Part shown: positions 30,028 to 35,648 of the stretch, piece after piece
Layout: each line of letters begins with the position of its first letter
How positions within the stretch are numbered: the first letter of the stretch is position 1
Source of the DNA: a virus
Reading direction: 5' to 3' (one strand)
Length of the DNA: 64,000 nucleotides
Virus record (IMG/VR): IMGVR_UViG_3300034980_000520
Coordinates: 8,249-72,248 of that record
Program-made: the position numbers and the translations under genes
Notes under the pieces: generated by a model
The model's database searches: none
What the model was told of the DNA's origin: nothing
What the model saw: the letters and a program-made list of their open reading frames with translations, nothing else

Positions 30028-31221
30028 ATGACATATTTTTTTCGAGAAGACAATAGCGAAAGCACCATAGACTTATATAATAAGAAGAGAATATACGATA
30101 GTATAATCCGCGGCACTTCTCCAAATCTTGTTAATTTTCAATTTGCCGAAAAGGCACTTTATGGGAGAGTAGATCGCCTCTACCGCCCAATGGTACTTAC
30201 TAACTATATACCGCTCCAACTAAAGGGCTTCGGCGCAGAAGGAACACCTGCCCAATCGGCACGTGCCTTAAACTTTGTGGCAGACGCTTTCGCTGATTTG
30301 AGAAATCAGTTTTTAAAAAAGAGGCTGACAAATGAAATCTCCCCAAATGAAGATTTTCTGAGTAGCCCTGTTGTTTATAAAGCCTATGTGAATCCCAAGA
30401 AAACTTACGATGAATATATTCAGATATATTTAGAGGCATTTCAAGATGTTGTCCGCACCAAAAGGCTGACATTCGGCAATTTTCAAGAATTTATAGACAC
30501 GATCATGCCATTTTTAATGAAAACGATTCGCAAAAAGCCATTCACCTATACTGCATTCGTCAAGAGTACATTTTGCCCAATCAACGCGTCCGGACTCGTG
30601 GTAGAGATAGCGGATATTGATCCCGTGAATGATGTAGAAAAGGTGAAGAAGTTCATCAAGAGCCCCAATTGGCAGTTTTATTTAACAGCATGCGGTAATT
30701 TTGGCTTCATGGTAGATCGCAACACCCCTTGGCGCCTCGTTGCTGACATCGGTTCGGCAAACATGCTACAGTATGCTGAGCGCTATGGAGTTTATTCGAC
30801 TGATGGGGTTTTAGTAGCAGCATATGGCCGGGCATATAAAAACTACTTGACAACCTTTCGCTCTATATTGTATAATATGTACATGAAACTAAAGCGCCCT
30901 CGATATTCTCGCTATGTTGAAGTTGATTCATTGGGAGGAAAGGTTGTGACAGTAACCCCGAAGCGATACAGGCCAGAAGACTATTTATTAGAATTTCCGG
31001 ACTCTTACTTTTTAAGTCTCTATTGTAAAATTAGAATGGTGGAGGAGGAGTCGTCTTTTTCGGAAGCGCAGAAGTACCAATTAATAGACAACACTATCGA
31101 ATTGGCACAGGTTAATCCGACTAGGGCGTTAGATACATTTGAAATTATTGTGAATAAAACGTTTGACTATAACGGCTCATTGAGTTACATTAAGGATACA
31201 TTGGCAAAGCTGAGAGAGTAA
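30028..31221 (+). CDS. Hypothetical protein
   Basis: 397-aa ORF; YGRVD and FGFMVDRNTPWRLVAD conserved-looking blocks. Confidence 0.7.
   Translation: MTYFFREDNSESTIDLYNKKRIYDSIIRGTSPNLVNFQFAEKALYGRVDRLYRPMVLTNYIPLQLKGFGAEGTPAQSARALNFVADAFADLRNQFLKKRLTNEISPNEDFLSSPVVYKAYVNPKKTYDEYIQIYLEAFQDVVRTKRLTFGNFQEFIDTIMPFLMKTIRKKPFTYTAFVKSTFCPINASGLVVEIADIDPVNDVEKVKKFIKSPNWQFYLTACGNFGFMVDRNTPWRLVADIGSANMLQYAERYGVYSTDGVLVAAYGRAYKNYLTTFRSILYNMYMKLKRPRYSRYVEVDSLGGKVVTVTPKRYRPEDYLLEFPDSYFLSLYCKIRMVEEESSFSEAQKYQLIDNTIELAQVNPTRALDTFEIIVNKTFDYNGSLSYIKDTLAKLRE
31163..31191 (+). promoter_or_regulatory. sigma70-type promoter upstream of the mini-PolA
   Basis: TTGACT-17-TACATT inside the 3' end of the preceding gene. 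Confidence 0.55.
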
Positions 31222-32423
31222 TGTATTTTCAATCTATTGATGATAAAGAGGAATGTCTAGGCATATACCACGATGGTGTTTTGGAATTTGATAAAGACAG
31301 AATGCCCACGGATTTTTCCGGAATGAGAACGTGGAAATATTCAGGATCTATTATAAATAAAGATGTAGAATATGGTTGGCTATGGGCATCGGGTAGCAAC
31401 CTAAAGGAAATGTGCCCACCTGAACTACAGTCAGAATTGTCGCGCATGCAAAAGAAGATGTCGGCATTTAAAAAATCATTTGAGATCGCCAAAATCGATT
31501 TTCGTCAACATTGCTTTTTTGATCTGGTACCGCACGATTTTTTGACTGCTTTTTTAGAAGTTAAAAATAAGATAACTCAGCATGTATTTGAAACAACAGA
31601 AAAGCCTGTTATCTACGATCACCTGTGCCAATTGGAAAAACTGTTGTATAAGATAAGGTATCAAGAGATGAACATTGACCCTACCGACTGTCGACACCTT
31701 TTCATCAAGTCTGCCCACCGATCCCGAGCAAACAAAATTATGGGCGGCTCTCGGTTCATCGATTACAACATTTTTGGAACAAAAACAGGACGATTAGCAA
31801 CGTATCCGGGATCTCTCCCTCTACTGACGATGCAGAAAGAATTGCGTGCTTTCATTAAACCACGCAACGATTGGTTTATTTCTCTTGACTATAATGCAGC
31901 AGAGGCGCGAACTGTAATCGGATTACTTGGAAAGTCACAACCAACGGAAGATGTGCACGAATGGCATATGGATACTATTTTTAAGAACACGGAAATCTCC
32001 ACCCGAGAAGCTGCAAAAACCGCTTTTTTCGCGTGGCTGTATAATCCTGCATCTAGTCAATTCACCCAACAGCCATACGAGAGAGATGAATTGCTGGAAA
32101 AGTTTTATAAAAATGGATGCATAGAAACTCTTTTCGGAAGATCGATAGAAGTAGATGAATTTAAAGCACTTAACTACCTGATTCAAAGCACGACGGCAGA
32201 TTTAGTGAATGAGCGCGCCGTTGCATTAGACAGCTTCCTAGAAGGCACGAAAAGCTTTGTGTCGCACATCGTGCACGATGAGGTGGTTTTGGATATGCAT
32301 GACGAGGATCGTCAATTGTTGCCTGAAATTAAAGATATCTTTGCGCAAAACCGTTTGGCGAAATTTGAGGTTAACTTTAAAGCGGGTAAAGATTATTATA
32401 ACTTAGAAAGGTTGAACGTATGA
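31221..32423 (+). CDS. Compact family-A DNA polymerase (polymerase domain only)
   Basis: TKTGRL, motif A SLDYNAAEAR, motif B REAAKTAFFAWLY, NYLIQST, motif C IVHDE. Confidence 0.8.
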   Translation: MYFQSIDDKEECLGIYHDGVLEFDKDRMPTDFSGMRTWKYSGSIINKDVEYGWLWASGSNLKEMCPPELQSELSRMQKKMSAFKKSFEIAKIDFRQHCFFDLVPHDFLTAFLEVKNKITQHVFETTEKPVIYDHLCQLEKLLYKIRYQEMNIDPTDCRHLFIKSAHRSRANKIMGGSRFIDYNIFGTKTGRLATYPGSLPLLTMQKELRAFIKPRNDWFISLDYNAAEARTVIGLLGKSQPTEDVHEWHMDTIFKNTEISTREAAKTAFFAWLYNPASSQFTQQPYERDELLEKFYKNGCIETLFGRSIEVDEFKALNYLIQSTTADLVNERAVALDSFLEGTKSFVSHIVHDEVVLDMHDEDRQLLPEIKDIFAQNRLAKFEVNFKAGKDYYNLERLNV

Positions 32424-33283
32424 TATCGATCGTGGGAATAGGTAATGCCGGCTCTGCCATCGCGGAGAAGTTTAAGTCGCAAAAGAACAACTATAAGGTG
32501 TATCAGCTAAATAGCAAATGTGGTAAATCCAAATCTTGCCATAAACTGAAAGAATTTGACACACCAGAAGAATACGAGAACAGCATACCGAATCTTAAAA
32601 CATTCTTTAAAGATATCACCGACAAGGTACAAGTATTTGTGGTGGGCTCCTCCAAAAGCTCCGGCTATGCTTTGGGTATCTTGGAGCAAATAAAAGATAA
32701 AAATTTAGAGATATTCTATATAAAGCCTGATACCGAGTTGCTGACAGGTATTCCCAAGCTGTTAGAAAACATGACATATGGAATACTACAAGAATATGCC
32801 CGCTCAGCTATGTTTACATCGCTGACAGTTTTTTCGAATTACGAGATTGAAAAAAATCTGCCCAATATATCAATTAAAAATTATTTTGATACCCTTAATC
32901 AAACCATTTTTTCTTCCGTTCATTATCTCAATTTTTTTACGCACACGGAGCCGGAAATAGGACAAGTTTCGCGCCCCGCTCCGATTAACAGGATCCGCAG
33001 TGTTGGGATGCTTAATTTAAAAGATATGTCAGAAAAATGGCTCTTTAACCTTGACAGCCCGCGTGAAACATGCTATTATATATGTATAAATCAGGATAGA
33101 TTAGAAAAAGAATCGGGCTTGCATAAACAGTTGGTAGATATGCTCAAGGAGAAGCCTCGAAATGCTTACAGAAAGATCTCATATGGTATATGGGAGACAA
33201 ATTTACAAGACTTTGGGTTCTGCGTTGCCCACACTAACGCAATTCAACAACAAACTACCCTTGACAAGCTAGAGCAAGGGTGA
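32420..33283 (+). CDS. Divergent tubulin/FtsZ-like protein
   Basis: N-terminal IVGIGNAGSAIAE (T1 loop); the GGGTGSG signature appears replaced by GSSKSSG; KPDTE, FSN and F..LN positions compatible. Confidence 0.6.
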   Translation: MISIVGIGNAGSAIAEKFKSQKNNYKVYQLNSKCGKSKSCHKLKEFDTPEEYENSIPNLKTFFKDITDKVQVFVVGSSKSSGYALGILEQIKDKNLEIFYIKPDTELLTGIPKLLENMTYGILQEYARSAMFTSLTVFSNYEIEKNLPNISIKNYFDTLNQTIFSSVHYLNFFTHTEPEIGQVSRPAPINRIRSVGMLNLKDMSEKWLFNLDSPRETCYYICINQDRLEKESGLHKQLVDMLKEKPRNAYRKISYGIWETNLQDFGFCVAHTNAIQQQTTLDKLEQG

Positions 33284-33289
33284 TACATT
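33261..33289 (+). promoter_or_regulatory. sigma70 promoter for the SSB-recA unit
   Basis: TTGACA-17-TACATT with an extended TG; a hairpin at about 33292-33312 follows. Confidence 0.65.
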
Positions 33290-33343
33290 AGATATCGAGG
33301 AAAGCTCGGTATACTTTACAACAACAAATAGGAGAAAAAACTA

Positions 33344-34111
33344 ATGTCAATCAATATGGAACTAATGAAGAAGAAGCTCGCATCTCTGCGTGGAGAAGGC
33401 GGCAACGAAAACTCAGTGTGGTTTAAGCCACAAGAGGGCGAACAAGTGGTTCGCATCGTCCCCACTGCAGATGGGGATCCACTTAAGGAAATGTTTTTCC
33501 ACTACAATGTGGGTGATCACAAGGGGGGCATTGTATGTCCTAAACGAAACTTTGGCGATCGTTGCCCCGTCTGCGAATTTGCATCCTCAGTATGGAAAGA
33601 GGCTGTAGCAACAAATGACGAAGAAGCGAAGAAGCTTGCAAAGTCATTGTTTGTACGTGCGCGATACTTCTCCCCCGTAGTACTTCGGGGATCAGAAGAG
33701 GAAGGAATTAAATTCTACGGCTACGGAAAGCGCGCCTACGAACTTCTTTTGGGATACATTTTGGATCCCGAATACGGTGACATCACCGACAAACTGGAAG
33801 GTACCGATATTACCTTAGTGTATACTAAGCCCACATCCCCCGGTGCCTATCCACAAACAAGCCTTAAGATGAGAAGAAATACTTCGACTCTACTTGAGGA
33901 TCAAGACGCTATCCCCGCCCTCCTTGATCGTATGCCCGATTTTGATAGCCTCTTTGAGCGACTTTCCCCCGAGGAAATAGACGCGATTCTTGATGAGCAA
34001 CTTGCTGGTGATCTTAGTGCGGAAACACGATCATCGGAAACTGGGCGTTATAATGTTGACACTCAAAACCCAGTTGATAAGGCATTTGATGAGCTGATGG
34101 CCACCAAGTAG
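33344..34111 (+). CDS. Single-stranded DNA-binding protein (T4 gp32-like)
   Basis: WFKP..G..VVRIVP, H..CPK..GDRCPVCE Zn site, YGDITD..EGTDI, acidic tail DKAFDELM. Confidence 0.85.
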   Translation: MSINMELMKKKLASLRGEGGNENSVWFKPQEGEQVVRIVPTADGDPLKEMFFHYNVGDHKGGIVCPKRNFGDRCPVCEFASSVWKEAVATNDEEAKKLAKSLFVRARYFSPVVLRGSEEEGIKFYGYGKRAYELLLGYILDPEYGDITDKLEGTDITLVYTKPTSPGAYPQTSLKMRRNTSTLLEDQDAIPALLDRMPDFDSLFERLSPEEIDAILDEQLAGDLSAETRSSETGRYNVDTQNPVDKAFDELMATK

Positions 34112-34122
34112 CGGGCTTGTTT

Positions 34123-34160
34123 AAGCCGCTGGCAGATCGGCTTTAAGTAAATAGTCTGCC
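34123..34160 (+). promoter_or_regulatory. H-type RNA pseudoknot, copy 1
   Basis: S1 AAGCCG/CGGCTT, S2 GGCAGAT/GTCTGCC, L1 2 nt, L2 0 nt, A-rich L3. Confidence 0.65.
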
Positions 34161-34191
34161 GCAATTTTCTATAAACAAAAAGGAGAATGTT

Positions 34192-34434
34192 ATGGAATGG
34201 TTAAAATCCCTATGGGCTAAATGGAAGGTTCAAATTAGCGTAGCAGGAGGCGTCCTGGTGATTGCCACCGCCTACGGAACCTGCAGCGTAGATCCCACTA
34301 CGGTTTCTGACAATAGTAGCACAGATATCAACACGACTGAGACAGTCGAGGTATCAGCCACCACAGAGACAGTTGGAGAGACAACAACCACGGGTGATAC
34401 CACAGGTACCACCACCACAACTACAGGCGAGTAG
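34192..34434 (+). CDS. Small membrane-anchored Thr-rich protein
   Basis: SD AGGAG; amphipathic plus TM N-terminus, AYGTC, Thr/Glu-rich tail. Confidence 0.75.
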   Translation: MEWLKSLWAKWKVQISVAGGVLVIATAYGTCSVDPTTVSDNSSTDINTTETVEVSATTETVGETTTTGDTTGTTTTTTGE

Positions 34435-34440
34435 TAAAAA

Positions 34441-34470
34441 AGCCGCTGGCAGACCGGTAAAAAGTCTGCC
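34441..34470 (+). promoter_or_regulatory. H-type RNA pseudoknot, copy 2 (recA leader)
   Basis: S1 GCCG/CGGT, S2 GGCAGAC/GTCTGCC, L3 AAAAA; direct repeat of copy 1. Confidence 0.65.
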
Positions 34471-34496
34471 GCCATCACAAGCTTTAAGGAGGGCAC

Positions 34497-35648
34497 ATGG
34501 CAAAGAAAGTTACGGCTAAAGCAGGACGTGTAGCAATGCAGGATCTGATGAAATTAGTCAATAAAAAAGCCGGCAGAAATGTCGCACACGATTTAACGGG
34601 AGATAATCCCACGTCCGTCAAGGAATGGATCCCAACAGGATCAAGATGGCTTGATTCTATTATCTGCAAGGGGTACGTCGCCGGCATCCCAGTAGGCAAG
34701 GTTACAGAGATCGCCGGGTTGGAATCAACAGGCAAATCTTACATGGCTGCGCAGATCGCAGCAAACGCCCAGAAACAGGGCAAGCTTGTCGTTTACTTCG
34801 ATTCTGAGTCTGCCATCGATCCAACCTTCTTAGAGCGCACAGGGTGCGATTTAGGGCGTTTAATGTACGTTCAGGCGTCCTCTGTGGAGTTTGTGCTGGA
34901 GACGATCGAAGAACTTCTCGGTGCGTCCGATGACAAGCTCGTATTTATCTGGGATTCGTTGGCGTTTACGCCATCTGTGTCTGATGTCGAAGGAGACTTC
35001 AATCCCCAGTCGTCAATGGCGGTTAAGGCACGTATTCTGGCTAAGGGAATGTCTAAGCTGGTAATCCCCGTTGCTGATAGACAGGCGACACTGATCGTTC
35101 TGAATCAGCTTAAAACAAACATCCCGCAAGGACCGAACGCTAGAATTGTTGCGATGACAACACCATACACAACACCCGGCGGGAAGGCAATGCATTATTC
35201 ATATTCATTGCGCATATGGCTAACAGGGCGAAAGGCAAAGTCTTCCTTTATTGAAGACGAGAAGGGCTTTCGAATCGGATCAGAGGTTAAGGTAAAACTT
35301 GAGAAATCTCGCTTCGGCACTCAAGGTAGATCGTGCGCATTCCGCATTCTATGGGGCACCGAAGAGATTGGTATCCGAGACGAGGAAAGCTGGTTTGACG
35401 CTATTAAGGGCTCCGAGAGTCTTACCTCTGCCGGAGCATGGTATACGCTAGCTACTCCAGATGGATACACCAAGAAATTTCAGCCATCTAAGTGGACTGA
35501 CTTGATTACATCTGATGAAGAGTTCCGCGGAAAGGTTATTCAAATAATGGATGAAGAGATCGTTCAAAAGTTTGAGAAAAGAGAAGGCGATGCAGCCAGT
35601 TTTTATGAAGATCCGGAAGACTTGACAGTCCCCGTAACTTCAAAATAA
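34497..35648 (+). CDS. recA: RecA/UvsX recombinase
   Basis: IPTGS..LD, Walker A GLESTGKS, YFDSESA, WDSLA, LNQL, TPGGKA. Confidence 0.93.
   Translation: MAKKVTAKAGRVAMQDLMKLVNKKAGRNVAHDLTGDNPTSVKEWIPTGSRWLDSIICKGYVAGIPVGKVTEIAGLESTGKSYMAAQIAANAQKQGKLVVYFDSESAIDPTFLERTGCDLGRLMYVQASSVEFVLETIEELLGASDDKLVFIWDSLAFTPSVSDVEGDFNPQSSMAVKARILAKGMSKLVIPVADRQATLIVLNQLKTNIPQGPNARIVAMTTPYTTPGGKAMHYSYSLRIWLTGRKAKSSFIEDEKGFRIGSEVKVKLEKSRFGTQGRSCAFRILWGTEEIGIRDEESWFDAIKGSESLTSAGAWYTLATPDGYTKKFQPSKWTDLITSDEEFRGKVIQIMDEEIVQKFEKREGDAASFYEDPEDLTVPVTSK

Follow-up and report, generated by a model that had tools for sequence, protein, structure and literature searches.

Two copies of one small RNA pseudoknot element, each about 40 nt long, lie between a gp32-like single-strand DNA binding protein (SSB) gene and a recA/UvsX-like recombinase gene in a marine phage. 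The DNA we analyzed, referred to below as the window, is a 64-kb stretch (64,000 nt) of the IMG/VR virus record IMGVR_UViG_3300034980_000520, part of a 72-kb parent record that is estimated to be about 40% complete. The element is predicted to fold as an H-type pseudoknot with a 4-bp first stem (S1), a first loop (L1) of 1 to 2 nt, a second stem (S2) of 7 to 8 bp, no second loop (L2), and an A-rich third loop (L3), and this fold is well supported by comparison with relatives. Our tentative reading, to which we give a probability of roughly 45%, is that the element acts as a leaky, pseudoknot-reinforced terminator and 3'-end protector that would set the dosage of the upstream gene versus the downstream genes.

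Both sequences were pointed out in a first-pass annotation of the window, and they occur letter for letter where it placed them (Table 1). The stems end 31 nt before the ATG at 34192 (copy 1) and 26 nt before the ATG at 34497 (copy 2), with a Shine-Dalgarno (SD) sequence at each. The S2 pattern is found at these two places only, in the 64-kb window as in the whole 72-kb record. Within the window there are 3 matches versus 0.01 expected, a number reached by 0 of 100 shuffles; the two copies account for 3 matches, as the pattern also recognizes copy 2 on the minus strand. Nested folding recovers only the 7-bp hairpin and two pairs across a bulged U (-12.4 kcal/mol for copy 1 and -13.2 kcal/mol for copy 2), and since the folding z-scores versus shuffles are unremarkable (-0.84 and -2.75), folding energy alone proves nothing. 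The 7-bp S2 stem has 4 to 5 G-C pairs, with one further pair that can be added, and so has the G+C-rich hairpin of intrinsic terminators. Behind the stem of copy 1 stand G and C, two A, and four U (34161-34168). A simple terminator scan of the window listed neither copy.

The pairing was examined in relatives from IMG/VR, where there are hundreds; we used 80 loci with RecA of 84-98% identity and 80 with SSB of 76-100% identity. A structure-aware regular expression that required at least 6 of the 7 S2 pairs gave 185 unique instances, and removal of 6 rows with unrelated coding-region stems left 179, which reduce to 154 unique cores. The clade alignment holds 147 of these cores and the two window copies (149 instances); the patterns that selected the instances also required the CCG/CGG core. 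S2 cells in this alignment are 99.5% paired, partly by construction, and 5 of the 7 pairs show changes on both sides, for example G-C 119 and C-G 30, A-U 122 and C-G 20, or C-G 126 and G-C 20. The three S1 core pairs are invariant in the clade, again partly by construction. The fourth S1 pair is GU in 74 instances, GC in 22, AU in 11, CG in 5, and UA and UG in 1 each, with 30 unpaired and 5 gapped. It forms in 118 of the 154 cores versus a shuffle mean of 104, and none of 5000 shuffles reached as high; a sub-lineage of 25 clade cores has an A opposite G at this position. In a divergent lineage missed by the model, CCC/GGG replaces CCG/CGG and S2 is different, again with compensation.

Outside the clade we searched with a 22-base pattern in which the fourth S1 pair was left free, taking one genome per species for bacteria, and aligned 150 of the 168 unique matches to test S1. 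In these phage and bacterial sequences the fourth pair is CG in 55, GU in 35, GC in 14, UA in 12, AU in 6, UG in 3, and something else in 25, so that all four Watson-Crick pair types are seen. This degree of pairing was reached by 0 of 500 shuffles, and controls in which the position was slid scored much lower. Counted over all unique matches, the fourth pair forms in 103 of 125 viral sequences (55 expected from the shuffle mean) and in 37 of 44 bacterial ones (26 expected). The shuffle figures are not probabilities, because the relatedness of the sequences inflates the counts. Since S2 and the 4-bp S1 both covary, as the first-pass annotation had proposed to check in relatives, the H-type pseudoknot is well supported. 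That annotation gave S1 a length of 4 to 6 bp, of which four pairs hold up. In copy 1 the core pairs 34125-34128 with 34138-34141, and the extension to 34123-34128 with 34138-34143 occurs in this phage only; the fifth pair forms in 53 of 154 instances versus a shuffle mean of 54.5, and we reject the fifth and sixth pairs. The annotation also drew a competing hairpin across the stop codon of SSB; its 5' arm is present in just 2 of 56 unique SSB 3' flanks, from the closest relatives L083 and L084, and we likewise reject this hairpin as a conserved feature.

Every SSB gene in the clade is followed by the element. A strict pseudoknot pattern is fitted by 50 of the 56 unique SSB 3' flanks, the remaining 6 having an S2 of 6 bp, as against 1 of 1120 shuffles and 14 of 640 coding windows. 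The long-loop type, represented by copy 1, always comes first after SSB, and all 138 matches to a covariance model of the hairpin, found over 80 SSB loci, lie on the gene strand. When locus specificity was tested with this model in the window's own record and four large relatives, including a 195,690-bp record rated 100% complete, matches were confined to the SSB-recA locus, and the idea of a generic terminator used throughout the phage is rejected on this ground. The interval between SSB and recA measures 66 to 2787 nt in 83 unique intervals, with 1 copy in 31, 2 in 26, 3 in 20, and 4 in 6; its length increases with copy number, with one more copy for each inserted small gene. The minimal locus of SSB, element, and recA is contained within 66-90 nt in 11 of the 83, and the arrangement in the window (385 nt, 2 copies) is a common one. 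In the closest relative, L003, one extra gene stands between copies alike in stem, loop, and about 20 nt of 3' flanking sequence. N-termini homologous to that of the 80-aa open reading frame (ORF) between the window copies come after copy 1 in relatives, and this ORF is a variable cassette gene between two copies of the element.

An SD and start codon lie no more than 60 nt after the element in 150 of the 179 unique clade instances, the distance from the stem being 17-47 nt with a median of 25 nt. In the remaining instances the next feature is a promoter-like site (15), a tRNA gene (3, by ARAGORN), or something else (11). The tRNA genes directly follow the element in relatives such as L054:2872, L104:4095, and the L236:257 region. 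By eye, many of the 56 unique flanks share a short CTTGT/TTTGT word (34117-34121 in the window) that lies after the SSB stop codon and ahead of the first copy.

The element extends well beyond this clade. The 22-base pattern matches at least 120 viral contigs and 45 bacterial stretches, while the same pattern reversed, with equal composition and equal hairpin potential, matches 0 viral and 6 bacterial sequences. The bacterial matches come from Verrucomicrobia, Lentisphaerae, and Alpha-, Beta-, and Gammaproteobacteria, among others, and most have phage-like genes around them. Five unrelated phage records have exactly one copy each, and three of these are rated complete with terminal repeats. 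Among five bacterial genomes, with 150 first-look candidates scored in each, three have 1 match and two have none; a repeat family of bacterial genomes is rejected on these counts. Short-query blastn with three versions of the element against phages and plasmids gave marginal matches only.

Neighboring genes were surveyed as 102 unique upstream ORFs of at least 100 aa and 89 downstream ORFs. Upstream, Pfam names gp32 in 13, two capsid families in 11 and 8, Enc34 ssDNA-binding in 4, SSB in 3, tail tube in 3, and periplasmic solute-binding protein in 2. The PHROGs assignments, in which an ORF may belong to two families, give SSB families with 13, 3, 2, and 2 members, gp2.5-like SSB with 5 and 1, and major head protein with 11, 10, 1, and 1. 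The upstream SSBs therefore come from at least four families: gp32-like, bacterial SSB, Enc34-type, and gp2.5-like. Downstream, Pfam names DNA polymerase A in 8, RecA in 6, Dam methylase in 5, AAA_30 helicase in 5, and SNF2/DEAD helicase in 4, and there are also primases, exonucleases, and head-tail adaptors.

A few bacterial contigs stand apart in this survey. The contexts of L170, L183, and L204 (Methylocaldum and Methyloversatilis contigs) do not look phage-like. The upstream ORFs of L183 and L204 end alike and are presumably the solute-binding protein named by Pfam, and L170 and L204 have only a 285-aa downstream ORF in common. On a contig of a Parvibaculum metagenome-assembled genome (L177:3562-3666), the element lies immediately before a match to the suhB/mmgR small RNA (RF00519, 42.8 bits) on the same strand.

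What follows the stem is also distinctive. A purine and a C come first, and then a pyrimidine-rich, U-rich stretch depleted of G, which makes up 0-1% of viral bases at positions +2 to +6. A T-run of at least 4 within 14 nt is present in 71 of 124 viral instances (2 and 3 in control windows) and in 15 of 44 bacterial instances (0 and 1 in controls). In the clade, a T-run of at least 5 is found in 11 of the 15 instances with a promoter next versus 36 of 151 with an SD next. A longer tail before promoters is what would be expected if full stops stood at the ends of operons and leaky ones between cistrons. At +2, 123 of 149 instances have a C, a potential partner for the invariant G that stands before L1 and otherwise closes S1 (G-C 123, G-U 20, other 6); likewise, the U that precedes the stem and the purine that follows it could pair (U-G 91, U-A 33, C-G 3, other 22). 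With these pairings the hairpin would become longer, an alternative fold that reaches exactly to the U tract.

The element stands 3' of a gene whose product is required in bulk and ahead of genes with a smaller demand, and it has a hairpin and a U-rich tail; from these features, which suggest a leaky terminator and protective 3' structure, we infer termination, protection, and leakiness. In the mechanism we propose, the 7-bp S2 hairpin would form the body of the element, and the first four bases of its loop would pair with the four bases just 5' of the hairpin (S1), stiffening the terminator as a pseudoknot; the A-rich L3 would come next, and then the purine, the C, and the G-poor, U-rich tail. 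Some transcripts would stop just after the element. The stopped message, for SSB here and for capsid or tail tube proteins elsewhere, would be left with a compact 3' end that is a poor substrate for exonucleases. The remaining transcripts would read through into downstream genes needed in smaller amounts, in this case recA. The element could thus set the ratio of proteins within one operon, and binding of SSB would not be required. As a side effect, repeated copies flank small variable genes and are probably joints at which cassettes are gained or lost. In a marine RNA library, copy 1 lies within a contig of 477 nt, which fits read-through, weakly, as DNA carry-over is possible; the RNA libraries consist of assembled contigs, which are uninformative on 3' ends. 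Differential stability conferred by protective structures is documented in E. coli operons (PMC5927463). If the leaky terminator reading is correct, many phages fix the ratio between a bulk protein (SSB, capsid, tail tube) and the product of the following gene with one compact, portable RNA device, and the element is a candidate 40-nt part for tuning synthetic operons.

Several observations weigh against this reading. The tail of copy 2 has no U-run, its longest T-run being 2, and a T-run of at least 4 is missing in 29 of the 44 bacterial instances. Because the control windows are partly coding, the A+T richness of intergenic DNA may add to the enrichment of T-runs. The element's loops, at 8 to 17 nt, are longer than those of typical terminators. 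About 15 bases are nearly invariant across phyla in an element that is mostly present once per phage genome, and plain termination does not explain this, because ordinary terminators are not conserved in sequence; the near-invariance of the instance sets is itself partly by construction, because a paired S2 and the CCG/CGG core were built into the search patterns. An RNA that is nearly invariant across phyla, is pseudoknotted, and occurs once per genome is usually more than a passive hairpin.

The first-pass annotation had offered a different model, in which the pseudoknot nucleates cooperative binding of the phage SSB on unstructured A/U-rich RNA up to the next ribosome-binding site (RBS), so that free SSB represses translation of the small gene and recA. 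We regard this as weakly supported and rather improbable. In its favor, the geometry matches that of the operator of T4 gene 32, where a pseudoknot of about 28 nt is folded ahead of an A/U-rich single strand that reaches the RBS (PMC535899), and the close SD and start codon in the 150 clade instances noted above and the minimal SSB-element-recA loci suit it as well. A link to SSB stays in view because SSB genes of unrelated families precede the element repeatedly, at a frequency far above chance expectation. In other phages, however, the identical element follows major capsid and tail tube genes, and in the clade it can precede a promoter or a tRNA gene. It lies 3' of the SSB gene and not 5', the leader of the SSB gene has a different, conserved hairpin in place of the element, the tail is terminator-like, and the spacer of 17-47 nt compares with more than 40 nt of unstructured RNA in T4 (PMC535899). 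Invariance of sequence across hosts and SSB families would also be odd for proteins that bind without sequence specificity. Taken together, this context argues against SSB-set translation of recA as the general mechanism.

A more demanding role would be that of a regulated terminator, in which the invariant pseudoknot senses or docks a small ligand, RNA polymerase, or a conserved host factor, and this partner switches between termination and read-through and so times the downstream genes. The element shows three features that Weinberg and colleagues use as criteria for sophisticated RNAs (PMC5737381), namely occurrence in several phyla, a pseudoknot, and many nearly invariant nucleotides, and it is therefore a candidate for such a job, which is why we keep the sensor reading. 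One invariant G that pairs either in S1 or in the extended stem would offer two alternative folds, and the element is single-copy in three complete genomes among the five unrelated phage records. The downstream genes, on the other hand, have no common metabolic theme, no Rfam 15 riboswitch family matches, and none of our results points to a ligand or factor, so that we think this role unlikely. Equally unlikely, in our estimate, is the broader proposition that the element represents a new class of pseudoknot riboregulator of about 35-40 nt, common to marine, freshwater, and soil phages and to prophages of several phyla, whose invariant bases would offer a pocket or a docking surface to a small molecule or to RNA polymerase, a universal partner that chooses between termination and read-through.

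The tight spacing of 17-47 nt to the next start codon would also suit a processing or translation signal, with an endonuclease cutting near the element to leave a protective 5' hairpin, or with the element recruiting ribosomes to the next gene. The conserved U just before the stem and the purine just after it would be in keeping with this, and structured 5' ends made by RNase E are reported to stabilize downstream operon segments (PMC5927463). We nevertheless consider it quite unlikely, as instances before promoters or tRNA genes have no nearby downstream RBS. A tRNA-like 3' end is rejected, R-C-C-A coming after the stem in just 11 of 149 and 3 of 150 instances, and ARAGORN finds no tRNA-like gene in the window. 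Least likely of all, and in our view very improbable, is a DNA-level recombination joint like PeSL or attC through which copies let small cassettes swap between SSB and recA: copy number tracks the inserted small genes (1 to 4 copies over the 83 unique intervals), the extra gene of L003 is flanked by similar copies, and PeSL promoter-terminator motifs act in this way in T4-like phages (PMC4122927), but most phages have a single copy, with which no exchange is possible, the fold is strand-specific (the opposite strand would have C-A mismatches in place of its many G-U pairs, and every one of the 138 matches is on the coding strand), no integrase adjoins the element in the window by ORFs and Pfam, and recombination between repeats is the expected by-product of any repeated terminator.

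Table 1. Features of the SSB-recA locus and parts of the two element copies (window positions).
Feature	Position	Strand	Basis
Sigma-70-like promoter before SSB (TTGACA, 17 nt, TACATT)	33261..33289	+	Promoter scan; conserved in relatives
gp32-like SSB gene, 255 aa	33344..34111	+	ORF; Pfam PF08804 gp32, E 3.5e-13
Element copy 1, long-loop type	34123..34170	+	Hairpin covariance model, E 1.2e-9
Copy 1 S1a (conserved core 34125-34128)	34123-34128		
Copy 1 L1	34129-34130		
Copy 1 S2a	34131-34137		
Copy 1 S1b	34138-34143		
Copy 1 L3 (A-rich)	34144-34153		
Copy 1 S2b	34154-34160		
Small ORF, 80 aa, hydrophobic N-terminal segment, Thr-rich tail	34192..34434	+	ORF
Element copy 2, short-loop type	34441..34478	+	Hairpin covariance model, E 7.5e-11
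Copy 2 S1a	34442-34445		
Copy 2 L1	34446-34447		
Copy 2 S2a	34448-34454		
Copy 2 S1b	34455-34458		
Copy 2 L3 (five A)	34459-34463		
Copy 2 S2b	34464-34470		
recA/UvsX-like recombinase gene, downstream cistron	34497..35648	+	Pfam PF00154 RecA, E 5.2e-36

The genes around the element are consistent with a single operon. The promoter before SSB would drive SSB, the small ORF, and recA as a single transcript, and the promoter scan finds no promoter-like site from SSB to the start of recA, neither copy of the element being joined to a promoter. Both copies are thus predicted to be transcribed within the SSB-ORF-recA operon, with SSB as the upstream and presumably highly expressed cistron. Pfam gives no family for the 80-aa ORF. 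The locus has no blastn match among cultured phages, and the best tblastn match of RecA among them is 32% identical.

The leader of the SSB gene (33258-33343) is conserved in relatives, and its -35 hexamer lies within an inverted repeat (CCCTTG ... CAAGGG). The SSB transcript would begin with an 8-bp hairpin in which 33292-33299 pairs with 33305-33312 around a GAAAG loop; this stem covaries among relatives, and an A/C-rich unstructured stretch lies between it and the SD. This hairpin with its A-rich unstructured stretch looks like a better candidate than the element for autoregulation of SSB. Promoter-like sites that follow the element in relatives (e.g., L160:1914, L140:3219, L017:842, and L019:846) include several with a -35 hexamer in a short inverted repeat, such as CCTTGA ... 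TCAAGG and GTTGTTGA ... TCAACAAC, which suggests that an operator or hairpin feature may be common to the promoters of this clade.

Farther upstream, the region 30028-32423 may encode a split or highly divergent polymerase. The 400-aa ORF at 31221-32423 is recognized by Pfam as the C-terminal part of a family A DNA polymerase only, and the 397-aa ORF that precedes it has no Pfam family. A 287-aa ORF just before SSB (32420-33283) also has no Pfam family and contains a glycine-rich IVGIGNAGS near its N-terminus.

The comparison with Rfam that the first-pass annotation had called for turned up no known family. No part of the window matches Rfam 15 at the gathering score, STAXI (RF01728), the preQ1 classes, radC, and Mu-gpT-DE included. 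At E up to 10 over 33250-34550 there are four chance-level rows, with no plausible family and none at the element, and no Rfam match falls at the element in 18 bacterial loci. The element has no family model in Rfam 15 and deserves one. A literature search did not find a description of the motif; a catalogue of 8,495 candidate RNAs from IMG/VR exists and, from the available text of its description, may include it (PMC10690425).

Among known systems, the T4/T2 gene 32 operator resembles the element in shape, though neither in position nor in context. Each folds as a small H-type pseudoknot in which the first loop is short, a stem has about 7 bp, and the last loop is rich in A; from there, single-stranded A/U-rich RNA extends to an RBS, and each is associated with a gp32-type SSB gene. 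The T4 operator consists of a pseudoknot of about 28 nt and more than 40 nt of UUAAA/UAAA-rich leader 5' of gene 32 (PMC535899). The core of the element, about 29-38 nt, is of similar size, whereas the spacers in the window are 31 and 26 nt. T4 gene 32 is preceded by its own operator; both window copies lie 3' of the SSB stop codon and none in the leader, 17-47 nt before another gene in the clade. Unlike the T4 operator, the element is also found after capsid genes, with a U-rich tail behind it. As far as the available text of PMC10690425 goes, Rfam holds no model of the T4 gene 32 pseudoknot.

The nearest described motif in spirit is STAXI (RF01728), like the element a pseudoknotted hairpin, often repeated, near genes for SSB and DNA handling on mobile DNA (PMC2864571). 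STAXI has been reported in Enterobacteriales as two or three tandem repeats with UUCG tetraloops (PMC2864571), whereas the element is not tandem and has A-rich loops, and the RF01728 model does not match it even at E up to 10. The PeSL of T4-like phages are, like the element, repeated stem-loops that flank small variable genes; they mark points of cassette exchange, as the element probably does, and couple the stem-loop to an early promoter (PMC4122927). In contrast, a promoter comes first after the element in only 15 of 179 instances and after neither window copy; the element is also restricted to a single locus, and its conservation reaches far outside any single phage group.

The preQ1-I riboswitch is the smallest known pseudoknot aptamer, an H-type fold of about 35 nt with an A-rich strand that lies beside a terminator or RBS, and in all these respects the element resembles it. 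preQ1-I, however, uses its 3' tail for pairing and sits in the 5' leader of a metabolic operon, whereas in the element it is the 5' flank that pairs with the loop and the position is after genes; the Rfam preQ1 models do not match it. The T7 T-phi terminator after the capsid gene and the REP hairpins after malE are terminator or protective hairpins behind genes for abundant proteins. Like these, the element is directly 3' of a high-abundance cistron and before genes of lower need, presumably for differential expression within one transcript. The T-phi and REP hairpins are not known to be pseudoknotted or conserved in sequence between distant organisms, whereas the element is both. The general principle of differential expression within one transcript is described in PMC5927463.

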